From the NCBI GenBank assembly GCA_046598345.1, contig JBKJIT010000001.1:44251-108250 (forward strand): DNA of 64,000 bases, given 5' to 3'. Position 1 is the stretch's first letter. Each line of letters begins with the position of its first letter. The position numbers and the translations under genes were made by a program. The notes below the pieces were generated by a model that saw only the letters and a list, made by a program, of their open reading frames with translations, did not search any database and was not told where the DNA came from. The stretch comes from Minisyncoccia bacterium. Lineage in GTDB: Bacteria; Patescibacteriota; Minisyncoccia; Phycocordibacterales; UBA918. Of the stretch, positions 11,075 to 64,000 are shown in pieces.

Positions 11075-12769
11075 GTGAGGGGTATGCGATCAGAGTTGAG
11101 AAAAGCAATTGAAGCAGTGCTTTCGGAAATGGGATTTCCGAAAATGGATTTTTCTGTGGAACACCCAAACGACACTCTTCATGGTGACTATGCAACGAAC
11201 GCTGCGATGGTGGTGGCACAAAAACTTCGAAAAAATCCACGTGATGTGGCAGAGGAGATCGTAACTGCGCTGCAGGGAAAAATTCCGCATGTAGCAGAAC
11301 TCGAGATTGCGGGTCCTGGGTTTATTAATTTTTATTTGAGCCGTGATTTTTTCAAAGAAAAAATCACGCACGCCCTTAATCAGGGTGATTCCTGGGGCAA
11401 GAACGATTCCTTGAAGGGAAAGAAGGTGCTTGTTGAGTACACTGATCCAAATCCATTTAAGGAATTCCATGTTGGGCATCTCTTTACAAATGCAGTGGGA
11501 GAGACGATTGCTCGTCTTTTTATGATGAATGGAGCAGATACAAAGCGAGTAAACTACCAAGGAGATGTTGGACTCCATGTGGCCCATGCGATTTGGGGAA
11601 TGAAAGAACTTGCTATTGGGCAGGGTGATTTTACTGCACGTGATTTAGGAAGAGCGTACGCGCATGGTGCAACCGCCTATAAAAACGAAGATCCTCGAGC
11701 GGTACTTGAAATACGCGAGATCAATAAAAAAATCTATGATCGAAGTGACGAAGATATAAACGTCTTTTATGAAAAAGGACGTGAAATTTCGCTCTCCTAT
11801 TTCGAGAGTATATACAAAGTAATAGATACGACATTCGATTCCTATTTCTTTGAAAGTGAAACGGGAACACGCGGAAAAGAGTTGGTTCTTGCACATCCTG
11901 AGTTGTTTCCTGAAAGCGATGGAGCCCGTGTATTTAAAGGAGAAGCACACGGTCTTCATACGCGTGTGTTTTTAAACAAAGAAGGACTTCCAACCTACGA
12001 AGCAAAGGAGCTCGCCCTTGCAAAGCTAAAGGAAGAACGACTTGGGACATACGATCTTTCCGTCATTTCGACGGCCAACGAGGTGAGTGAATACTTTAAG
12101 GTACTCAAAAAAGCAATGAGTTTTATTTATCCAGAGCTTGCAGAAAAAACGGAGCATATTGGACATGGCATGGTCAGGCTCTCTACAGGAAAAATGTCTT
12201 CACGCACAGGAGATGTTATTACGGCAATGGATTTTATTGATGAAGTGGCGGATGCAGCTGCCGCGAAAATGGATGAGGGAGGAAAAACTGCTCCAGATGA
12301 TGAGCTCGCCCGTGATATAGCAATTGGCGCTATCAAGTATGCGACACTGCATGGCAGCATTCTTCAAAACTCTATTTTTGATAAAGAAAAGGCTCTTTCA
12401 TTCGAGGGAGATTCAGGCCCATACCTTCAGTACACGCATGCGCGTATTTGTAGTGTACTTCAGAAAGCTAAGGAGGTTGGAGTAGTGTCCACTCCTAGCG
12501 TGATTCTCCCAGTTACATATGCGATTGAGCGAATGGTCTACCAATTCGAAGAAATAGTTGAGGACGCGCTTAACGAGCGAGCGCCGCACAAAATCGCGGT
12601 TTTTCTCACTGAGCTCGCAGGATCATTTAATGCCTTTTACGCAGCAGAAAAAATCGCCGATGCCTCAGACGCACATGCACCCTACAAAGCAGCCATTGCG
12701 GACGCGGTGCGACTCACCGTTAAAAACGGCCTTTGGACGCTTGGGATCAAAGCCCCCGAAAGGATGTGA
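11075..12769 (+). CDS. argS: Arginine--tRNA ligase
   Basis: Class I HIGH motif (HVGHLFTNAVGE), N-terminal add-1 domain, C-terminal DALR anticodon-binding region. Confidence 0.85.
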   Translation: MRGMRSELRKAIEAVLSEMGFPKMDFSVEHPNDTLHGDYATNAAMVVAQKLRKNPRDVAEEIVTALQGKIPHVAELEIAGPGFINFYLSRDFFKEKITHALNQGDSWGKNDSLKGKKVLVEYTDPNPFKEFHVGHLFTNAVGETIARLFMMNGADTKRVNYQGDVGLHVAHAIWGMKELAIGQGDFTARDLGRAYAHGATAYKNEDPRAVLEIREINKKIYDRSDEDINVFYEKGREISLSYFESIYKVIDTTFDSYFFESETGTRGKELVLAHPELFPESDGARVFKGEAHGLHTRVFLNKEGLPTYEAKELALAKLKEERLGTYDLSVISTANEVSEYFKVLKKAMSFIYPELAEKTEHIGHGMVRLSTGKMSSRTGDVITAMDFIDEVADAAAAKMDEGGKTAPDDELARDIAIGAIKYATLHGSILQNSIFDKEKALSFEGDSGPYLQYTHARICSVLQKAKEVGVVSTPSVILPVTYAIERMVYQFEEIVEDALNERAPHKIAVFLTELAGSFNAFYAAEKIADASDAHAPYKAAIADAVRLTVKNGLWTLGIKAPERM

Positions 12770-13012
12770 AATGAGCAAACGAGCGCAAGCGACTATTGCG
12801 AATTTCCGTCTCGATTTCCTCCCTCGCAGAGGAAATCGCTAGACGTGTGGAAAATTGCCGGGAATTCCAATATTTTTTTGCAAAATAATTTCCGTCCCAC
12901 TTTTCTTAATCCCTAAAGAAAAGTGCTGGACGAAGGAGCTTTTTGATACACATTTTGGTGTCAAACATGAAGGGCGGTTTTTCATGTACACACCGTGATA
13001 TACTTTTTATAT

Positions 13013-13162
13013 ATGAATACACCAGAATCATTTGAATCAGAGATTCCAAAAATGGCACAGGGAGATGAGATTAGCGAAGCCGAGGCAAAGGAGATGGAAG
13101 ATCGAGCTCGCGAAGGCGCAGGATTCGGAGTCAATGACCCAGATGCAGCAGGGAACGATTAA
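13013..13162 (+). CDS. Small acidic ORF (49 aa) with its own terminator
   Basis: ATG at 13013, stop at 13160. A perfect hairpin terminator follows at 13181-13207. It is too short for the ORF track; low confidence. Confidence 0.2.
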   Translation: MNTPESFESEIPKMAQGDEISEAEAKEMEDRAREGAGFGVNDPDAAGND

Positions 13163-13180
13163 GTAGTATACAAATACATA

Positions 13181-13207
13181 AAAATGCGACTTCCAAGTCG
13201 CGTTTTT
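13181..13207 (+). terminator. Rho-independent terminator
   Basis: aaaatgcgac-ttccaa-gtcgcgttttt. Confidence 0.55.
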
Positions 13208-13322
13208 CATCTGTGATTTTGTAGTTTCTATACGTGTGAATAATGTGTTGCAAATAAAGGAGTTTGTGGCAATATGAAATTTAACCGCTACACGTCGTGG
13301 CGGAGGATACAGGAGGTTAGAA

Positions 13323-13697
13323 ATGAGTAAGAAGAACCCTCGTAACCCCCGGTTGGTTGTTGTTTGCTTTCCCCAACCGGATCCCAAAGCGCGTTGGGAC
13401 GACAAGACGCGGAGAAACCCGCACCCGGAGGTACTCGCTCGCGGCCACTACCAAAGCGCCGAAGAATTGGTGCGGAAGTGCTGGTCTGAAATGAGCAAGT
13501 TGAAGCCCTCCCAGCGCTTCTGTGCGAAGTTCGCGATCGGGTTTGAATCGGAACCCGACATCGCACAGCGCAAGAAGGAAGTCGCTGTTTCCTGGAGCGA
13601 AACCAGGTGGGGCAACGGCACGTTTGAAGCATTCAAGCAGTTCATCATGGATCTGCTTCACAAGTACTTTCCGGCCCCCGTGGTCCAAGCGACGTAA
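13323..13697 (+). CDS. GC-rich orphan hypothetical protein (124 aa) with a perfect AGGAGG SD
   Basis: Local GC is clearly higher than its surroundings. aggaggttagaaATG; terminator hairpin gcccgct-catagtc-agcgggc plus T-run at 13722-13747. No recognisable domain. Confidence 0.4.
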   Translation: MSKKNPRNPRLVVVCFPQPDPKARWDDKTRRNPHPEVLARGHYQSAEELVRKCWSEMSKLKPSQRFCAKFAIGFESEPDIAQRKKEVAVSWSETRWGNGTFEAFKQFIMDLLHKYFPAPVVQAT

Positions 13698-13853
13698 GGA
13701 GCGCCGCAAAACAAAGGGATGCCCGCTCATAGTCAGCGGGCATTTTTCAATGTTATGAGAAACTCAAAATAAAGGAAAAACCACAGCATGCTATGGTTTT
13801 TCTTTTTTGTAGTATCATATCTAACTGTACGTCTGATATGCGTACATTTTATT

Positions 13854-16800
13854 ATGTCTGATATACATAACCATATGAATGCTAACAAAAAGGAAAAAAC
13901 TCAAGAAAATAGTACGGAGAAGAGCGAAGTAGCACTTCGCGAAGAGGAAATGCTCGCGTTTTGGCGAGCGAATAACGTTTTTAATACGAGTGTGGAAACA
14001 CCTGCAGGCAAGGCGCCGGTCGGTGATTTTGTTTTTTATGATGGTCCACCGTTTGCAACGGGGACACCACACTACGGACATATTCTTGCAGGAACCATTA
14101 AAGATGCGATCCCACGTTTCTGGACGATGAATGGATACCGTGTGGTTCGCAAATGGGGATGGGATTGCCACGGTCTCCCACTTGAAAATATTATTGAGAA
14201 GCGCCTGGGCCTTGCGACAAAGCGGGACATCGAAGCTCTCGGGGTAAAACAATTTAACGAAGCGGCGCGAGAAGCAGTCCTGGAGTATGCCGACGATTGG
14301 AAGGAGGTTGTGCCCCGCATGGGTCGCTTTGTGGACATGGGGGACGACTATAAGACAATGGACTCCACCTATACGGAGTCTGTGTGGTGGGTGTTTAGTG
14401 AACTCAACCGAAAGGGACTCGTGTATGAGGGATTTAAATCCATGCATCTCTGCCCTCGCTGTGGAACGACACTCTCAAACTTTGAAGTGAATCAGGGATA
14501 CAAAGATATCAAAGATATTGCGGTCACGGTGAAACTCCCTCTCCTTGATGAGCAGGGTGAAGTGACCGACACCTCACTTCTTGTATGGACGACAACCCCA
14601 TGGACACTTCCGGGAAATATGGCTGCTGCAGTCCATAATGACATCGACTATGTAAAAGTAAAATTCCTTAATCGAGAGCCAGGAGCGCACCGGGCGACCG
14701 ACGCTGACCCTGAAGCAGCAATGCGTCTCGAAAAAGTTATTCTCGCAAAGGCTCGCCTTGCGCAACTCTCCACCGATGAATATGAAATTCTCGAAGAGAT
14801 GAAGGGGAGCACGCTTGTGGGGAAACGCTACGCACCACCCTTTGAGGCATTCAAAAACCAGGAATTTAAAGACAAGGAGAATGCGTGGAAAATTTACCAT
14901 GCGGAGTACGTTGACTTAGGAGAAGAGGGAACGGGCGCGGTGCACCTTGCACCGGCGTACGGTGAGGAAGATATGGAACTTGCGAAGGAAGAGGGAATTC
15001 CAATTCAACACCACGTAGATGTTGGAGGTCGCTTCAGAGAGTTTGTGGGACACCCATTTGCAGGCGAGCTCGTAAAGCCCAAAGATGACGATCTTGCTGA
15101 TGTAACCCACCTCGATGCTGATATTGAAATTGTAAAATTTCTTAAAGATAGCGGAAGGCTTATACGAAAGGAAAACATCACACATAGTTACCCGCACTGC
15201 TGGCGCTGCGAGACGCCGCTTCTGAATTACGCAACGACCTCATGGTTTGTGCGCGTAACTGATCTCAAAGATAAGCTTGTCGAGGAAAATAATAAAATAA
15301 AATGGGTCCCCGAACATGTTGGGCGTGCGCGATTTGGGAAGTGGCTCGAAGGTGCTCGCGATTGGGCAATCAGCCGCCAACGCTACTGGGGTGCGCCACT
15401 TCCTATTTGGAAAAATCCAGAAACCGGGGCGTATACAGTGATTGGCTCGTTGGAGGAACTCATGACGCACGTTCCGAAATCAGGAAATATCTTTGTACTC
15501 ACGAGGCATGGTGAATCAGAATTCAATACACAGGGAATACTCAACGCGGAACTCAATGTGCAGAATGGACTCACTGAGAAAGGAAGTGAGCAGGTGCGAA
15601 GTACTGCAGCGCTCCTCAAAGATAGACCAATTGATTACATCTACTTTTCACCTCTCCAGCGCACGAGAGAAACTGCGACCATTATTGCCGAGGTGCTCGG
15701 TCTACCTAGGGATCGATTGATTGAAGACGCACGTCTTATTGAAAATGGCTTCGGTGAATTTGAAGGCAAGAATGTGAATGAGTACCACGCATCTTTTCCA
15801 GACGGCGCACGTCGACTTACTGCACGACCTGAAGGAGGCGAAACATGGATGGAAACGAAGCGACGCATGGGTGCATTTCTCTATGAAATTAATGAAAAGC
15901 ATACGAATGCTCGAATCTTAGTTGTCTCCCACAATGGACCGCTCCAAATGCTCCAGGCCGTCGCAGGAGGAAATGATTTTAACGATACGGCGTATCACAT
16001 CGATAAAAATGATTACGATATAGATAACGCTGAGGTGCGTGAGATTCGGTTTACCCCGCTTCCGCATAATGACAACTACGAGCTCGATTATCATCGTCCC
16101 TATATTGACGACATACAGCTCGTTGATGAGAAGGGTGCACCGCTCGTGCGTGTTCCCGATGTGTTCGACTGCTGGTTTGAATCAGGCTCCATGCCGTACG
16201 CTCAGAATCATTATCCTTTTGAAAACAAAGAACGATTTGATCCCAAAACTGGGAAGGGATACCCTGCGCAGTTTATTGCCGAAGGAGTAGATCAAACGCG
16301 TGGGTGGTTCTATTCGCTCATCGTGCTCGGCACGGCACTCTTTGGAAAATCTCCCTACGAACACGTGATTGTAAACGGCCTGGTACTTGCTGAAGATGGG
16401 AAAAAAATGTCGAAAAAGCTTCAGAACTATCCAGATCCTATGGAGCTCACGAATCGCGTCGGGGCGGATGCGATTCGGTTCTACCTCCTCTCGTCGCCGA
16501 TTATTAAGGCAGAGGACGTCAATTTTTCTGAAAAGGAGATTTTGGAGCTTCAGCGTAAAAATATTGGACGTCTCCATAATGTGCTCGCCATGTATGAAAT
16601 GTACGCGAGCGAAGAAACGAAGATCGACGCGCAATCAGACAATGTGCTCGATCGTTGGATTGTTGCACGCGTAGCATCAATGCTTCGTGAGGTGACGGAT
16701 GGGTACAAAGGGTACGAACTTGATCGTGCGACACGTCCTATTACCGACTTCATTGATGACCTTTCTGTCTGGTATTTGAGACGGTCGCGTGACCGTATTA

Positions 16801-17492
16801 AGAGTGATGATGCGGGAGACAAAACGAAAGCACTCGGAACACTGAAGTATGTGCTTCGCGAACTCTCTATCGGTATAGCTCCTGTAATGCCATTTTATGC
16901 CGAGTATCTCTTCCAGAAAGTACGGGAAGAAAATGACGCAGTCAGCGTGCACCTTATGGGGTGGCCTATTGTGGAGGAGGTCGAGACCACGTCGCTTGAA
17001 ATAATGGCACAGGTACGGAAAATCGTCTCTTTGGCACTCGAGGCTCGTGCGAAAGCAAACATTAAGGTGCGACAGCCACTTCAGTCGCTTCAGATTAAAG
17101 ATTTGAATGACGTCGAGTACAGCACCTGGAAGAAAGACCAATCGTATCTATCGCTCATTACGGATGAAGTGAATGTAAAGGAAGTGCTCTTTACTGACAG
17201 CCTGGCGGACGATGTGTTTCTCGACACGACTCTTACGGATGCGCTTCGAAAGGAAGGAAATGTGCGCGAGTTCATCCGCAACATTCAAGAGGCAAGAAAA
17301 AATGCGGGTCTTGAGGCGGGGGATCGGATCACTCTCCAGGTTGATGCGGCGACGTCACTTCTCCTCACCGGATTCATGGAAGAAGTTCAGCGCGTCGTTG
17401 GTGCAACTGAGATAGTTGTAGCCCTGCTCGCGAATCCGGGAACGCTTACCATAGACGCAATCGCATACCAGTACGAAATCAAAAAAATATAA
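13854..17492 (+). CDS. ileS: Isoleucine--tRNA ligase with an inserted histidine-phosphatase (PGAM-like) domain
   Basis: HIGH (PHYGHILAG), CP1 editing region, WAISRQRYWG, VPDVFDCWFESG, KMSKK. A roughly 200-aa RHGESEFN...SPLQRTRETA...VVSHNG domain lies between WAISRQRYWG and VPDVFDCWFESG. The ORF is open from 13788; the likely start is the Met at 13854. Confidence 0.9.
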   Translation: MSDIHNHMNANKKEKTQENSTEKSEVALREEEMLAFWRANNVFNTSVETPAGKAPVGDFVFYDGPPFATGTPHYGHILAGTIKDAIPRFWTMNGYRVVRKWGWDCHGLPLENIIEKRLGLATKRDIEALGVKQFNEAAREAVLEYADDWKEVVPRMGRFVDMGDDYKTMDSTYTESVWWVFSELNRKGLVYEGFKSMHLCPRCGTTLSNFEVNQGYKDIKDIAVTVKLPLLDEQGEVTDTSLLVWTTTPWTLPGNMAAAVHNDIDYVKVKFLNREPGAHRATDADPEAAMRLEKVILAKARLAQLSTDEYEILEEMKGSTLVGKRYAPPFEAFKNQEFKDKENAWKIYHAEYVDLGEEGTGAVHLAPAYGEEDMELAKEEGIPIQHHVDVGGRFREFVGHPFAGELVKPKDDDLADVTHLDADIEIVKFLKDSGRLIRKENITHSYPHCWRCETPLLNYATTSWFVRVTDLKDKLVEENNKIKWVPEHVGRARFGKWLEGARDWAISRQRYWGAPLPIWKNPETGAYTVIGSLEELMTHVPKSGNIFVLTRHGESEFNTQGILNAELNVQNGLTEKGSEQVRSTAALLKDRPIDYIYFSPLQRTRETATIIAEVLGLPRDRLIEDARLIENGFGEFEGKNVNEYHASFPDGARRLTARPEGGETWMETKRRMGAFLYEINEKHTNARILVVSHNGPLQMLQAVAGGNDFNDTAYHIDKNDYDIDNAEVREIRFTPLPHNDNYELDYHRPYIDDIQLVDEKGAPLVRVPDVFDCWFESGSMPYAQNHYPFENKERFDPKTGKGYPAQFIAEGVDQTRGWFYSLIVLGTALFGKSPYEHVIVNGLVLAEDGKKMSKKLQNYPDPMELTNRVGADAIRFYLLSSPIIKAEDVNFSEKEILELQRKNIGRLHNVLAMYEMYASEETKIDAQSDNVLDRWIVARVASMLREVTDGYKGYELDRATRPITDFIDDLSVWYLRRSRDRIKSDDAGDKTKALGTLKYVLRELSIGIAPVMPFYAEYLFQKVREENDAVSVHLMGWPIVEEVETTSLEIMAQVRKIVSLALEARAKANIKVRQPLQSLQIKDLNDVEYSTWKKDQSYLSLITDEVNVKEVLFTDSLADDVFLDTTLTDALRKEGNVREFIRNIQEARKNAGLEAGDRITLQVDAATSLLLTGFMEEVQRVVGATEIVVALLANPGTLTIDAIAYQYEIKKI
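15495..16090 (+). other. Histidine phosphatase superfamily (branch 1, phosphoglycerate mutase/CobC-like) domain embedded in ileS
   Basis: VLTRHGESEFN (RHG catalytic His), SPLQRTRETA, ILVVSHNGPLQ (second catalytic His). Confidence 0.75.
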
Positions 17493-18067
17493 TGGCGTAC
17501 AAGGCATACATCACTGAAGCTCTTGTGTGCGGGAGTACGCCGCATCACACCTCCGACCGTTCCTACCTTCTCTTTTCTCGTGAGGCAGGCATGGTGTGGG
17601 CAACTGCAAAGAGCGTGCGCGAAGAACGGTCCAAGCAGCGCTATGCGCTTCAGGATTTTTCGTATGCGCGCGTAACGTTGGTGAAAGGAAAAAGTGGCTG
17701 GCGGCTTGCAGGAGCGGAAGCACTTTCAAATGTGTATATGGAAACAGAGTTACGTGGCGTTCGCGTGATGGTATGGAAAATTGTCGGACTCATTCGGCGG
17801 TTTGTGCAGGGAGAAGTCCCACACACCCAAATGTTTGACGATGTTCTTACTGCATTCAAAGAGGCTTCTCTCTATGATCCGGTGAAGCTTGAAAGTATTC
17901 TCACACTTCGGATTCTCTACGAGCTTGGGTACATAGCGCCGTCTCCGCTCTATGATGAGCTCCTTACTGTTCCCCGGTGGAATACGGGCGTTGATGCGCT
18001 GAGCGCCACAAACCTTGAACGGGTGCAGGAGGCCATTACGCATGCGCTTGGGGAGAGTCATCTCTAG
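17492..18067 (+). CDS. recO: RecO-like DNA repair protein (N-terminal OB fold plus helical domain; no Zn-finger)
   Basis: Pattern AKS.R...SK.....LQ.F......L..G..G..L.GAEAL and the downstream helical region match RecO. Confidence 0.6.
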   Translation: MAYKAYITEALVCGSTPHHTSDRSYLLFSREAGMVWATAKSVREERSKQRYALQDFSYARVTLVKGKSGWRLAGAEALSNVYMETELRGVRVMVWKIVGLIRRFVQGEVPHTQMFDDVLTAFKEASLYDPVKLESILTLRILYELGYIAPSPLYDELLTVPRWNTGVDALSATNLERVQEAITHALGESHL

Positions 18068-44007: not shown

Positions 44008-44718
44008 GGCGCCTACGTGTTTATGCATTTTTCACTAAGAACCACTTAGCGGCACCAGAACCGAAGGGTTCATTGTGCCGCCTCGCGCGGTTTTTTTAGT
44101 CAAAAATGCAAGGGGATACGTGTGATCATTGATAAATCCTAGAGGCAAGATCGAGCGCTTTTGGCGCCCTGGTTTCGTCTATAGGAGTTGCGTAACAATG
44201 GTCACGCAATCACATATCCTCGAGACGAGGTTGATAAGGCCTCGTCTCAGAAAAACAAATCCTGCTCGGGAATCGACGCCCGAGTAGGTGCATCTCTCAC
44301 TCAAATGAGAGGTGTCAGGTGAATGTGTAGCGTTTAGATTTTGTGTCATCGACACGGGGTCTTTTCGTCCGCTACACATTCAACACACACAACGTTTCTT
44401 TCACTTAGTATTTTTGTGGAAGAGACAAACAAGTAAGAATTGTACAGCGGTGTACAGAATCAGGTAGGTGAATGTAAAGCACTCGTAAAGCGGTGTATAG
44501 CATTCCCTACAGGATAAAGGGTGTATGGTGGATGCCTAGGTTTCAAGAAGCGATGAAGGACGTGGTATGGCTGCGTTAAGTTCCGGTTAGATGCCAAATA
44601 ATCTATGACCCGGAAATCTCCGAATGAGGAAACTCACCTGCTTACGGCAGGTACCCATGTATGTGGGAGCGTACCCAGCGAAGTGAAACATCTCAGTAGC
44701 TGGAGGAAAAGAAAGCAA

Positions 44719-44813
44719 TAACGGAACTTTCTTTCTGAACGGATGCTTAGCATCCGAACACGAAAGTGCGTAGGGTGCGAAAGTACCATTACGTTCAGGA
44801 AGAAGGTTCTTGC
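44719..44813 (+). other. About 95-nt insertion in 23S domain I
   Basis: Lies between GGAAAAGAAAGCAA and AATTCCCTGAGTAGCGGCGAGCGAA, which are adjacent in E. coli. Contains the hairpin gaacggatgcttagcatccgaac. Confidence 0.55.
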
Positions 44814-45081
44814 AATTCCCTGAGTAGCGGCGAGCGAAACGGGATGAGCCCAAACCATTCGTGTTTACATGGATGGGGTTGTAGGGCAGTAGCGTCATTT
44901 AGTTGAGAAGAGTAAAAAATTGTCGGGATAACAAAACGCGTTGGGAAGCGCGACCCTAGTAGGTAATAGTCCTGTATGTGAAATTACGACAACTCTTTTG
45001 TTACTGTTCCTGAGTAGTTCGGGACATGAATAGCCCGAATGAATCTGGGAGTACTAACTCCTAAGGCTAAATATTCTTGAA

Positions 45082-45127
<46 letters not shown>

Positions 45128-45692
45128 GGAGAGGGGAGTGAAATAGATCTGAAACCATACACTTACAAGGAGTCGCGGCCCTGCGGGGTTGCGGCGTGCC
45201 TATTGAAGAATGAGCCGGCGAGTGTACCTTTGTCCTTTGTCTAAGTGGTAATCCCACGGAGGCACAGTGAAAGCGAGCGTGAATAGCGCGAATATAGGGC
45301 AGGGGTACGACCCGAAGCGGGATGAGCTTGCCATGTGCAGGGTGAAGCGACGGTAAAACGTCGTGGAGGCCCGAACCGGTTGGCCGTTCAAAACCATCGG
45401 ATGACATGTGGTAGGGAGTGAAAAGCTAATCGAATTCCGTAATAGCTGGTTCTCTCCGAAACAGCTTTAGGGTTGGCGTCGCGTGTTCCTCCTGGGGGTA
45501 GAGCACTGGAAGGTCTAAATAGGGCGAAAGCTCGTTAGACCTATCAAACTCCGAATACCAGGTAGTTATAGCGCGGCAGTTAGACTATGGGGGAGAAGCT
45601 CCATTGGTCGAAAGGGAAACAGCCCAGATCGCCAGTTAAGGTCCCTAAATATATGCTCAGTGCAACTTGAGGAGGTGAGGATTCACGAACAA

Positions 45693-45723
<31 letters not shown>

Positions 45724-46576
45724 TAAAGAAAGCGTAACAGCTCACTGGTCGAGAGTCCTTGCGCCGAAGATGATCGGGGCTCAAGCATATTACCGAAACT
45801 GCGGATTTCATATTTTCTTCGGAAAGTATGGAGTGGTAGGAGAGCGTTCTGTTCTGCGATGAAGCCAAGGGGGGACCCGCGGTGGAGCGTACAGAAGTGA
45901 GAATGCCGGCACAAGTAACCGCAACACGGGTGAGAACCCCGTGCGCCGAAATACCAAGGTTTCCTTCGCTATGTTGTTCAGCGAAGGGTTAGTCGGTCCT
46001 AAGCCGATCCCGATCGGGGGAGGCGATGGATAGCAGGTTAATATTCCTGCACACTGTTTTGTTGCGATGGAGGGACGGAGTGTTGTACTCAAAGCATCTT
46101 ATTGGATTGGTGCTGGAGTTATGAGGACGTGAAGTAGGCAAATCCGCTTCGCTCACTTTAATGTGAAGTCCAAGTAAGGTCTGAAAGGGATCCTTCGGGT
46201 GAACTGATTTGGGGAGCACGCTTCCGAGAAAAACTTCTAAGGTTAAACAAAATGGTTCCGTACCGCAATCCGACACAGGTGGTAAGGTCGAGTAGACCAA
46301 GGCGAACGAGTGAGATGCTCTTAAGGAACTCGGCAAAAAAGCGGCCGTAACTTCGGGATAAGGCCTGCCCCTAGCAATAGGGGCCGCAGCGAAAGATTTC
46401 CTGGCGACTGTTTAACAAAAACACAGCTCCCTGCGAACACGTAAGTGGATGTATAGGGGGTGACGCCTGACCAATGCCGGAAGGTCAAACATGGAGGGTG
46501 AAGTGTATTTATATGCTTTGCTGGGCTATGTAAGCCCCGGTCAATGTCAGCGATAACTATAATCGTTCTAAGGTAG

Positions 46577-46770
46577 AGCAATTTTCTTCGGAAAATTGCT
46601 CTAGGACTGGAACGATTATAGGTTAAACATACAAGTGCCAAATGCTACCTTGTATGCAGAAATGCATGCATAGTCCAAATGCAACCAATAAGAGACCAAA
46701 TGTTGCACATCCTCGTCACGTAACAGTGAACGGATGAAGATAGAGTCCTTCTGCAATAAATAGGAAGAAG
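46577..46770 (+). other. About 190-nt insertion in 23S domain IV at the L1931-equivalent site (between CUAAGGU(AG) and AGCGCAAUUCCUUGUCGGGUAAGUUCCGAC)
   Basis: The flanks match the conserved H69-H71 region. The insert starts with an 11-bp stem and UUCG loop (gagcaattttc-ttcg-gaaaattgctc) and ends ...gaagaag. Confidence 0.6.
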
Positions 46771-47409
46771 AGCGCAATTCCTTGTCGGGTAAGTTCCGAC
46801 GTGCACGAATGGCGTAACGACTGGGAAACTGTCTCAAGAGCATGCTCGGTGAAAATACAATGGGGGTGAAGATGCCCCCTACCTGCAGTTAGACGAAAAG
46901 ACCCTAGGAGCTTTACTGTAGCTTCGTATTGGGGCTGTTTGATTAATGCGTAGCATAGGTGGGAGACTTTGAAGCGGGCTTTCGGGTTCCGTGGAGTCGA
47001 AATATGAAATACCACTCTTTAATTGGGCAGTTCCTAACCTCGTAGGCAAAACCTACGAGAGACAGTGCGTGGCAGGCAGTTTTAGTGGGGCGCTACCCTC
47101 CCAAAAAGTAACGGAGGGGTCTCAAGGTTGGTTAGGCGCGAATGGAAACCGTGCCGATAGTGTAATGGCATAAACCAGCTTGACTGTAAGACGTAGGTGT
47201 CAAACAGATGCGAAAGCAGAGCATAGTGAACCGATGGCCCGCGTTAGATGCGGCCGGAGATTACCCGATAAAAGTTACCCTAGGGATAACAGGCTAGTCG
47301 TGCCCAAGCGTCCATAGCGACGGCACGGTTCGGCACCTCGATGTCGGTTCAACTTATCCTGGGGCTGGAGCAGGTCCCAAGGGTTTGGCTGTTCGCCAAT
47401 TAAAAAGTT

Positions 47410-47447
<38 letters not shown>

Positions 47448-48015
47448 CTCTATCTACTGCAGGCGTCGATTCTTGATGAGATTTGTCCCTAGTACGAGAG
47501 GACCGGGATGAACGAACCTCTGGTCTATCGGCTGTCACGCCAGTGGCACTGCCGAGTAGCTATGTTCGGAATGAATAACCGCTGAAAGCATCTAAGCGGG
47601 AAGTCAACTCAAAGATGATGAATCATTAAGTCCCCTGAGAGATGATCAGGTTGATAGGCACTAGGTGTACGTGCAGTAATGCATGCAGCCGAGGTGTACT
47701 AATTGGACGTATTCCTGTAGGGAATGCTGTACATGGCCCACGATGTTGAAATTTGCACATTTCTGCGTTATGCGTCGGGAAACGTTGTTCACTGGACTAA
47801 AATGTCCCGTTCACAACATTTCCCTCGCATGCCTTGAACTGTATTAAATTTTAACATCGTGAAAATAAGCTGTGTACATTTCTACGGATTCTGTACACAA
47901 AAACAATTTTTACAAAGTGTTGTGTGAGTCGATCAAGTCCACGAGGATATGTGATTCTGAAAGCAATGTTTCGGAACTAAATATTGAATATGGTAACAAG
48001 GTTTACCTACCTAAT

Positions 48016-48188
48016 CGGGATGTAGCTTAGTTGGAGAGGTTTTGCGTGTAGCATACAACCACTGCACCATCTGCAGCCGCGATATGGTGAACTGCCGACG
48101 ACAAGTTGGAGGAAGGAGTGGAAACGTACAAAGCCGAGAGTACTAGGACAGTTTCCTAGGAGCGTTGGTTCGAATCCGACCATCCCGA
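48016..48188 (+). tRNA. tRNA-like gene with about 97 nt of additional internal sequence (intron- or insertion-containing tRNA, or tRNA-like processing element)
   Basis: 7-bp acceptor stem CGGGATG / CATCCCG, discriminator A, canonical T-arm GTTGG-TTCGAAT-CCGAC, D-arm-like TAGCTTAGTTGGAGAGG. A candidate anticodon hairpin CTAGG-ACAGTTT-CCTAG lies just before the T-arm. Overall length is 173 nt. Confidence 0.5.
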
Positions 48189-48264: not shown

Positions 48265-48377
<113 letters not shown>

Positions 48378-61885: not shown

Positions 61886-62267
61886 AGCCCCACTGTCCTG
61901 ATCTGGGACATTTTTATTGCCCCGGATTTTGGAGGATAGATGTCATTTGATAACGTTGTATGAAGGTCATACAATTGCATATCGTTCGATCAGTCGTACC
62001 TTTACGATTGGTTGAACAAAACGTATATGTTGCATAAGCAATGTCATTTTGACATTCATATGAAACGGTACGCATCACAAGAATTTGTCGAAAGACAAGT
62101 TCGAAATAAGGCAGAAGTTGATTACAAATATTTTGTATTTTCTTTTGTCTTATCCTTAGGAAATCGTTAAATAGTGATTTGAGAAAAAGTACACTCATCA
62201 CAATACATTTAACAAACAAGATGCACTCAGCCCTTAAAAGCTGAAGCAACTTGTCTTAACTTAGAGT

Positions 62268-63706
<1,439 letters not shown>

Positions 63707-64000
63707 TAATTCCAATTGGATACGTCGTTGCAATCTGGTAACAGAGAGCGAATAACGGCTAATTGGTCGACATTATGTGCCTCAATTGAGCACATAATAT
63801 GGGATGATACTCAACCTCAAAGATAGTATCTGTACTCTACGGAAAGACGTAGCCAAAGGATAAGACAAAAGAGAACACAAACGTTCTGTCGGTGATGATA
63901 TACAGTACAGAAAACAAAAGACCCGATCGCGAAGCGATCGGGTCTTTTGCGTACCTCTTTACCTTGGCCTCATCTGCATGTAGTCAGGCACAATGGGATT

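Follow-up and report, generated by a model that had tools for sequence, protein, structure and literature searches.

A histidine-phosphatase domain nested in the CP3 subdomain of a Patescibacteria isoleucyl-tRNA synthetase

Aminoacyl-tRNA synthetases are among the best-studied enzymes, and to our knowledge the additions described for bacterial synthetases are editing, tRNA-binding or zinc modules. One hydrolytic domain nested in a connective peptide (CP) of the Rossmann fold is familiar, namely the CP1 editing domain of the isoleucyl-, valyl- and leucyl-tRNA synthetases (IleRS, ValRS and LeuRS), which is universal and acts on aminoacyl-tRNA or aminoacyl-adenylate. A precedent for an IleRS with an extra enzymatic domain is provided by the NCBIfam family ileS_w_GNAT (NF040702), and a CobC-like phosphatase is joined to a nucleic-acid enzyme in the RNase H/acid phosphatase proteins (Rv2228c type, PRK07238). 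Here we describe an IleRS gene, ileS, in which a predicted histidine phosphatase is nested in the third connective peptide (CP3). The gene lies in a stretch of 64,000 nucleotides from a Minisyncoccia bacterium (Patescibacteriota; GenBank assembly GCA_046598345.1, contig JBKJIT010000001.1, positions 44,251 to 108,250 of the forward strand), which is called the window below and in whose own numbering all coordinates are given.

The window protein differs from each of these precedents. In contrast to CP1, its CP3 phosphatase is lineage-restricted and varies in copy number. The extra domain of NF040702 belongs to another family, and the window protein scores 308 bits with that model against a cut-off of 1999. 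In PRK07238 the fusion is terminal rather than nested and the partner is RNase H rather than a synthetase; the window insert scores 91 bits there against a cut-off of 326.

The synthetase and its nested domain

The mupirocin-resistant type-2 IleRS of Saccharomyces cerevisiae, Candida albicans and Priestia megaterium (IleRS2) are organized in the order Rossmann fold, CP core, CP1 editing domain, CP2, CP3, anticodon-binding domain and C-terminal domain, and the window protein has the same order. A phmmer search of the PDB matched it to type-2 enzymes with E-values from 5e-204 to 3e-185 (yeast IleRS at 5e-204, PmIleRS2 at 4e-196), far stronger than those for the type-1 enzymes (S. aureus IleRS at 2e-80, PmIleRS1 at 1e-76). 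With the NCBIfam ileS equivalog model TIGR00392 it scores 849.3 bits, above the cut-off of 621.4, and with the valS model 417 bits, below the cut-off of 612. The full-length AlphaFold2 (AF2) model has a mean predicted local distance difference test score (pLDDT) of 81.5 and a predicted template-modelling score (pTM) of 0.68; a fold search with this model returned type-2 IleRS structures, and because it superposes on them with template-modelling (TM) scores of 0.74-0.80, the synthetase scaffold is predicted to be intact. The gene is confirmed, at the level of profiles and motifs, to encode a complete type-2 (eukaryote-like) IleRS. Its HIGH, KMSKK and CP1 editing elements are all intact, as an earlier note on this DNA had stated.

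The open reading frame (ORF) that contains the gene (13788..17492, plus strand) is unbroken throughout. Its probable start is the ATG at 13875, in agreement with the database gene call P0001 (1205 residues). An upstream ATG at 13854 would give a version of 1212 residues; this ATG is located within the second of two leader hairpins described below and is judged spurious. The length of 1212 residues given in the earlier note is thus correct for the upstream ATG, but the probable start gives 1205. Residue numbers in this text follow the 1212-residue version.

The Pfam profiles divide the protein in the way that had been predicted: tRNA-synt_1 matches in two stretches (E = 1.4e-131) with His_Phos_1 (PF00300) between them, followed by Anticodon_1 and DUF5915. 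The His_Phos_1 match (E = 8.9e-37) covers profile positions 2-166 of 194 and scores 127.1 bits against a gathering score of 21.7. In the phmmer alignment, window residues 29-537 correspond to yeast IleRS 13-489 and residues 744-1116 to yeast 498-886. From these breaks the insert was defined as residues 538-743, replacing about 8 residues, and identical boundaries were obtained by alignment with insert-less Paceibacteria IleRS. The window protein therefore has an enzymatic domain of 206 residues where the CP3 loop of yeast IleRS has about 8. The GC content of the insert (0.466, against 0.49 in the flanks) and its GC content at third codon positions are both in line with the flanking sequence.

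The point of insertion corresponds to yeast residues 490-497, in the middle of CP3. In yeast IleRS (ScIleRS), CP3 comprises residues 459-526, the segment corresponding to ARDWAISRQRYWG is residues 453-465, and the linker between CP2 and CP3, ARDWNVSRNRYWG, contributes to the pocket for the CCA end (PMC7955072). CP3 is a peripheral subdomain whose topology varies among the Candida, Thermus (zinc-binding) and Staphylococcus enzymes (PMC7191050). These published accounts (PMC7955072, PMC7191050) agree with the earlier statement that the canonical segment is about 70 residues long and binds zinc in some lineages. The phosphatase is, on these alignments, seated in a surface loop of the peripheral and variable CP3 subdomain and not in the Rossmann fold or catalytic core proper; of the connective peptides in that fold, CP3 is the most plastic. 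The earlier description of an insert inside the catalytic core was right in that the domain is nested within the IleRS, and slightly overstated in that the host segment is peripheral CP3 rather than the core itself. The remainder of that description was borne out: a complete histidine-phosphatase domain of about 200 residues lies in frame between WAISRQRYWG and VFDCWFESG; the gene is not a pseudogene, nor is the domain fused at a terminus. The motif VFDCWFESGSMPY is present as residues 770-782.

The zinc-binding capacity of CP3 differs among these proteins. A zinc knuckle of the form CxxC...CxC is kept in all seven insert-less Paceibacteria IleRS that were examined, whereas the clade of the window protein is devoid of the CP3 zinc ligands found in those proteins and in Thermus thermophilus IleRS: the cysteines are present in 0 of 118 members (window segments 15393-15464 and 16083-16160). 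About half of the more divergent nested IleRS retain them, with the phosphatase lying between the two cysteine pairs. The idea that the insert replaces the zinc knuckle as a general rule was therefore rejected, since these proteins hold both.

The three signature motifs reported for the insert are where they had been placed: LTRHGESEFN at residues 549-558, SPLQRTRETA at 599-608 and VVSHNGP at 690-696. No variation was seen across 121 aligned sequences at R551, H552, N558, R603, R627, E630, E663 or H693. A set of 19 divergent inserts (30-43% identical) likewise keeps the RH pair, the second Arg and the second His without exception, and the presumed general-acid Glu of the GGE(S/T) motif is Asp in two of these and otherwise kept. 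In proteins with tandem His_Phos_1 domains, RH[GA] is retained in the copies that could be aligned from their N-terminus. The insert is modelled by AF2 with pLDDT of 90-97 within the full-length protein and of 90.4 when modelled alone, and a Foldseek search with the insert alone found the phosphoglycerate mutase-like alpha/beta fold (TM 0.72-0.78 to PspA, PhoE and GpgP). The nearest solved structures, taking sequence and fold together, are PspA, a riboflavin-pathway histidine phosphatase, GpgP, PhoE, CobC and TIGAR, with the cofactor-dependent phosphoglycerate mutases (dPGMs) just behind. The insert shares its fold (Foldseek E = 4e-13, TM 0.77) with PspA of H. thermophilus (4IJ5), PhoE/YhfR (1H2E), GpgP Rv2419c (4PZ9), CobC and the riboflavin-pathway enzyme (9MMH), and it has in common with the small-molecule phosphatases of branch 1 the catalytic set RHG, Arg, Glu and His. 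By these conserved residues and the predicted fold, the nested domain is a complete branch-1 histidine phosphatase with a full catalytic set, and we infer that it is enzymatically active.

Assignment to a described family was tried with several equivalog models. The best NCBIfam match of the insert was the archaeal-type dPGM model NF038349, at 96-99 bits against a cut-off of 225; the other dPGM model, TIGR01258 (pgm_1), gave 34 bits against 81.7. The CobC alpha-ribazole phosphatase model TIGR03162 gave 81-85 bits against 162.9, and the SixA phosphohistidine phosphatase model TIGR00249 gave 28 bits against 74.5. The PspA model NF045917 gave 78-82 bits against 350, yet PspA is the closest solved structure. 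Residue comparisons were made for two of these enzymes. The residues specific to dPGMs (E. coli numbering) are ERxYG, Lys100, the Arg116/117 pair and HGN; the corresponding signature positions in the insert read ENGFG and SHNG and lack conservation across the nested family. His85 is important for PspA, and the insert has Phe at the aligned position. Unlike the small-molecule phosphatases, the window domain is nested in another enzyme and is far below every equivalog cut-off; judged by these profile scores, it is a subfamily of its own among the histidine phosphatases.

Distribution and arrangements of the phosphatase

The nested architecture is widespread. PF00300 is present in all 120 of the best homologues (62-71% identical), whose sequences derive from assemblies at NCBI, JGI, ENA and Logan and whose record names include Kaiserbacteria, Paceibacterota, Nomurabacteria and Minisyncoccia (here and below, the taxon names of relatives are those of database record titles). 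Many titles read "uncultured Candidatus Saccharibacteria", which is probably a generic label given by submitters. The search with the insert alone that the earlier note had proposed was run against 1.84 billion representatives and gave 1,966 matches at E<=1e-10; among the best 150 of these matches (50% clustering), 103 have IleRS flanks, whose identity to the query is 36-70%. When a single genome for each GTDB species was scanned, 408 stretches that encode a relative were found, mostly from Paceibacteria. The best 80 of these loci were fetched and examined: all are from Patescibacteria, and all 80 have the insert in frame within an IleRS. An argS gene lies upstream wherever the fetched flank extends far enough, and in 74 of the 80 loci recO is matched on the downstream side. 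Compared with the query, the N-terminal part averages 79% identity, the insert 53% and the C-terminal part 61%, and this parallel divergence of insert and IleRS argues for an old, vertically inherited insertion. To judge from these alignments, the nested architecture is characteristic of a large Patescibacteria clade and is not a one-off.

These data also bear on whether the architecture could be an artefact, arising from chimeric assembly, from a pseudogene with a frameshift or from a wrongly called ORF. Broken ileS ORFs do occur in a few related contigs: ileS is split into overlapping ORFs in L084 (an ENA contig), L003 and L054, probably by sequencing frameshifts rather than as truly split genes, and in L003 and L054 the frame break lies downstream of the insert, in the C-terminal part. 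Against this stand the continuous ORF of the window, the occurrence of the identical protein on an independent Logan assembly, the in-frame insert in 80 of 80 loci from different assemblies and the homogeneous GC content. An artefact is accordingly so improbable as to be negligible, and neither boundary of the insert coincides with the frameshift or assembly join that the earlier note had considered; the ORF is continuous there and the insert is in frame in all 80 independent loci. Public databases already hold such proteins, labelled "class I tRNA ligase family protein" or "isoleucyl-tRNA synthetase". No account of an IleRS with a nested phosphatase was found in the literature searched, and the NCBIfam models include a GNAT-containing IleRS but no IleRS with a nested phosphatase.

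Several variants of the arrangement were found. Some IleRS have two or three tandem His_Phos_1 domains at the CP3 site, and several of these combine copies that differ in type (RHGESEGN... and RHGETDWN...). The top match of the exhaustive insert search, P0121, is a ValRS (381-411 bits with valS models, against 199 with ileS) that carries four phosphatase domains. Among the best 119 relatives of P0121 (including P0391-P0508), 70 carry one to three nested His_Phos_1 domains, with named examples from Gracilibacteria and Peregrinibacteria. In 62 of these 70 the domain occurs only about 22 residues past the CISRQ motif, which is the CP3 site equivalent to that of IleRS; in the other 8 a copy occurs ahead of CISRQ, at a second site. 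The ValRS of Paceibacteria (e.g. Nomurabacteria P0495) are without the phosphatase domain. That the domain recurs at corresponding CP3 positions of IleRS and ValRS, which are paralogous and both edit, points either to a specific functional link or to an unusually permissive site. Further domains are found in the IleRS P0267, which combines a CP3 phosphatase with a GNAT domain after DCWFESG, a different site, and with a REP/IS200-like tyrosine-transposase domain inside CP1. The IleRS of these bacteria seems to be a hotspot for domain accretion.

The same phosphatase family also exists in a free-standing form. When a profile of the divergent inserts was used, the best matches outside IleRS were free-standing Patescibacteria proteins of about 190-200 residues, and the genomic context of nine top homologues was looked up. 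The question raised earlier of where the nearest free-standing relatives sit can thus be answered: in seven of the nine cases (L081, L083, L085, L086, L090, L091 and L092) the gene is directly upstream of an insert-less ileS encoding 933-966 residues. Six of these seven genes overlap ileS or are separated from it by less than 60 nucleotides, the gene of L092 being about 460 nucleotides upstream. Six of the seven also share the synteny of the window, in the order smpB ... argS - phosphatase - ileS - recO - CLIPPER-like; the stretch fetched for L092 shows no argS and no recO. Two loci have both forms: in L088 a free copy lies about 1 kb upstream of a nested ileS, and in L040 a free copy lies between argS and a nested ileS. 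The window itself has no remnant of a free-standing phosphatase in the argS-ileS spacer (12770-13853, 1.08 kb), as judged by tblastn and hmmsearch. The free-standing orthologues (about 190 residues) keep the same catalytic residues, and in rough neighbour-joining trees, drawn without support values, the nested IleRS are interrupted by insert-less ones at two or more positions, and the adjacent phosphatases interleave with the nested domains. By sequence relationship and gene position, the nested and ileS-adjacent states are clearly alternative arrangements of one phosphatase family with ileS, and the finding of this family either within IleRS or encoded just upstream of an insert-less ileS argues for genetic coupling to ileS.

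Possible roles of the nested domain

The reading that we rank first, and consider probable, is that the protein is bifunctional, a working type-2 IleRS that also carries an autonomous, catalytically competent phosphatase co-expressed or co-localized with the synthetase. The phosphatase would form an autonomous globular domain in the CP3 surface loop. By analogy with the family, H552 would be the nucleophile and form the phospho-histidine intermediate, the phosphate would be bound by R551, R603 and H693, E630 would serve as the general acid, and the substrate would most likely be a small phosphomonoester, either a metabolite or a nucleotide. Aminoacylation and editing would presumably be unaffected by the insert, and the benefit of the coupling would be stoichiometric co-expression or co-localization with the synthetase. 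As to origin, most probably a neighbouring phosphatase gene was rearranged into ileS. A possible route would start with the phosphatase-ileS pair being duplicated in tandem, after which deletions in frame would leave ileS-N/phosphatase/ileS-C, and the loci L088 and L040 would resemble intermediates of this route.

Ranked second, and in our view doubtful, is a more direct coupling, in which the phosphatase acts on a substrate of the aminoacylation cycle. Candidate reactions would be the removal of 3'-phosphates or 2',3'-cyclic phosphates from tRNA ends bound to the synthetase, the hydrolysis of inorganic pyrophosphate, AMP or Ap4A that the enzyme has made, and the destruction of inhibitors that mimic aminoacyl-adenylate. 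Ap4A hydrolysis and an action on the tRNA 3' end had been suggested in the earlier note, which also named an alarmone as a possible substrate and moonlighting as a possible role. The presence of the same domain at the equivalent CP3 site in Paceibacteria IleRS and in Gracilibacteria and Peregrinibacteria ValRS speaks for such a coupling, as do the interconversion of nested and operonic forms and the location of CP3, which comes next after the CP2-3 linker, itself a part of the CCA-end pocket. So does the GNAT domain of other IleRS (NF040702; P0267), because GNAT enzymes can detoxify aminoacyl-adenylate analogues. On the other hand, the copy number of one to three in IleRS and four in ValRS P0121, and the second site in some ValRS, argue against a fixed geometry relative to the synthetic site; it is this argument against a rigid arrangement that places the autonomous phosphatase above direct coupling. 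The nearest characterized relatives, moreover, are all small-metabolite phosphomonoesterases, and we know of no enzyme of the histidine-phosphatase fold that acts on RNA ends. That the CP3 phosphatases of IleRS and ValRS together constitute a previously unrecognized translation-linked activity, directed at something the synthetase holds or makes, is correspondingly a tentative proposal that we think unlikely.

Several observations nevertheless weigh against an autonomous phosphatase that is merely co-expressed or co-localized with IleRS. No NCBIfam equivalog cut-off is reached by the nested domain, so that its substrate class is a guess. The recurrence at CP3 in both IleRS and ValRS is explained no less well by a direct link to aminoacylation or tRNA than by co-expression. 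One free-standing homologue (L087) is located elsewhere, away from ileS, and the single insert-less ValRS locus that was inspected has no phosphatase neighbour. The conserved adjacency could in part reflect phylogenetic inertia of the translation-gene block smpB-argS-ileS-recO, and the crudeness of the unsupported trees makes the number of transitions between nested and free forms uncertain.

Two further readings of the domain were weighed. It could be a non-catalytic module, either a sensor of a phospho-ligand or a structural brace of CP3, that modulates aminoacylation. A sensor would also conserve the phosphate-binding residues, and the loss of the zinc-knuckle cysteines from the window's clade (0/118, against their retention in 7/7 insert-less relatives) means that the insert could substitute for the knuckle structurally. 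This reading is nonetheless improbable, in view of the nested IleRS (about half of the divergent ones) that keep the zinc cysteines, the invariance of the nucleophile and second His over deep divergence together with near-invariance of the general-acid Glu, the retention of RH[GA] in tandem copies, and the preservation of the same residues in free-standing orthologues of about 190 residues. Alternatively, the insert could be the cell's glycolytic dPGM, or an unrelated housekeeping enzyme that has hitch-hiked in a permissive loop. NF038349 is indeed its best NCBIfam match (96-99 bits), dPGMs are among its fold neighbours, and CP3 is the most plastic subdomain of IleRS. Its scores are far below the dPGM cut-offs, however (96 against 225, and 34 against 81.7), the dPGM signature residues are not conserved in the nested family, and the domain recurs in ValRS and is kept beside ileS, all of which makes this identity improbable as well.

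Leader hairpins, gene surroundings and significance

The leader of ileS (region 13822-13885) shows a nucleotide conservation unusual for such divergent genomes, and it was through this conservation that two hairpins were spotted (Table 1). In an alignment of 32 loci, compensatory changes are seen at each of the six pairs of hairpin 1, with 95% of cells paired, a percentage that is biased because the inner five pairs served to choose these loci; the outermost pair, which played no part in the selection, is paired in 28 of the 32. The G·U pairs of hairpin 1 are compatible with pairing on the sense strand only. The loop of both hairpins is CUGAUA(U/C), with an invariant start CUGAU and A at the next position in at least 90%. 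A covariance model (R1) has one match in the 64-kb window (73 bits). It matches upstream of ileS in 54 of the 80 nested loci (among L001-L078) and nowhere else in them, and it matches none of ten loci with a free-standing phosphatase gene (L081, L083-L088 and L090-L092). No Rfam family matched the leader, and a permissive scan of the argS-ileS spacer gave nothing credible.

Five base pairs and a seven-nucleotide loop make up the geometry of an anticodon arm. The leader loop agrees at six of seven positions with the tRNA-Ile(GAU) anticodon loop of bacteria, which we take to be CUGAUAA, the seventh being U or C instead of A; the leader thus departs from the usual anticodon loop at position 38. 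Neither the window nor 60 loci yielded a tRNA with ARAGORN, and the only Rfam tRNA match, described below, is aberrant, so these sequences offer no tRNA-Ile loop of their own for comparison. The E. coli thrS operator likewise has two stem-loops with a cognate anticodon loop in its 5' leader, the proximal one abutting the start codon. The analogy suggests that the leader hairpins mimic the anticodon arm of tRNA-Ile(GAU) and may mediate translational autoregulation by IleRS of the thrS kind. The two systems differ in that the synthetase here is the monomeric IleRS, whereas thrS encodes the dimeric ThrRS. No account of ileS leader hairpins was found in the literature searched.

Table 1. Positions of ileS, its nested domain, leader and neighbouring genes in the window
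Feature	Position	Strand	Remarks
argS (arginyl-tRNA synthetase)	11075..12769	+	conserved upstream neighbour; synteny with L081-L092
Leader hairpin 1	13828..13844	+	stem of 5-6 bp, 7-nt loop CUGAUAU; candidate mimic of the tRNA-Ile GAU anticodon arm
Leader hairpin 2 (UAUGU CUGAUAU ACAUA)	13853..13869	+	nearly invariant sequence; ends 5 nt before the start codon at 13875
ileS coding sequence	13875..17492	+	1205 residues plus stop; predicted type-2 isoleucyl-tRNA synthetase with nested phosphatase; P0001 is 100% identical
HIGH signature HYGH	14070..14081	+	residues 73-76; at least 90% conserved in alignment A3
CP1 editing Thr-rich peptide TTTPWTLP	14589..14612	+	T224-T226, W228 and T229 invariant in A3
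CP1 APAYGEED with editing Asp	14949-14972	+	D351 invariant in A3
CP2-CP3 linker ARDWAISRQRYWG	15354..15392	+	residues 501-513; CCA-end binding segment of IleRS
Nested histidine-phosphatase domain with linkers	15465..16082	+	residues 538-743, 206 residues
Pfam His_Phos_1 (PF00300) match	15495-15989	+	residues 548-712
R551-H552 codons (RHG, putative nucleophile His)	15504..15509	+	invariant in 121/121 close homologues and 19/19 divergent
SPLQRTRETA with R603	15648..15677	+	putative second phosphate-binding Arg
RLIENGFGEFEG with R627 and E630	15732..15767	+	E630, putative general acid
VVSHNGP with H693	15921..15941	+	putative second catalytic His
C-terminal part of IleRS	16083..17489	+	second CP3 half, second Rossmann half, anticodon-binding domain, DUF5915 C-terminal domain
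KMSKK	16404-16418	+	residues 851-855; KMSK invariant in A3
recO-like gene	17492..18067	+	conserved downstream neighbour

The gene belongs to a synthetase cluster of about 13 kb on one strand (11075-~24100; L089 genes), in which argS, ileS, recO and a CLIPPER-like protein of 696-704 residues are followed by two more synthetases, one of class II (tRNA-synt_2b and HGTP_anticodon) and another of class I. The spacer between argS and the ileS leader (12770-13827, about 1.06 kb) has a GC peak of 0.57 at 13350-13649. No RNA family was detected in it, and its ORFs are poorly conserved, the ORF of 124 residues at 13323-13697 having one weak tblastn match, in L050. Elsewhere in the window the rRNA genes, all on the plus strand, are unlinked and follow an unusual order, with 23S at 44505-47724, 5S at 48267-48374 and 16S about 14 kb downstream at 62256-63716. 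The 23S gene probably carries insertions, since it spans 3220 nucleotides against a model of 2925; no Rfam intron family reached threshold. Between the 23S and 5S genes is a tRNA-like gene (48016-48188, plus strand; Rfam 34.7 bits, not called by ARAGORN) whose D-loop is enlarged by an insertion of 103 nucleotides and whose anticodon loop, ACAGUUU, is atypical and lacks U33.

The leader hairpins, if they act as proposed, would extend autoregulation of the thrS type to IleRS and to the candidate phyla radiation. The broader significance of the locus lies in a second, apparently active and unrelated catalytic domain that is nested in IleRS across a class of Patescibacteria and that turns up independently in the ValRS of another class, at the same site. 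These organisms have extremely reduced gene sets, and domains that they retain are likely to matter. The existence of the phosphatase both as a gene beside ileS and as a domain within it provides a natural Rosetta-stone pair. If direct coupling were correct, there would be a third catalytic site on a synthetase of minimal cells, beside those for synthesis and editing, which might for example heal tRNA ends with a 3'-phosphate or cyclic phosphate before charging, or hydrolyse phosphorylated adenylate-like inhibitors or by-products. An action on tRNA ends, on nucleotides of the aminoacylation cycle or on synthetase inhibitors would thus amount to a new quality-control or defence activity associated with a synthetase. 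If the domain is instead an unrelated metabolic enzyme, it would be a clear case of domain nesting as a device for genome streamlining.

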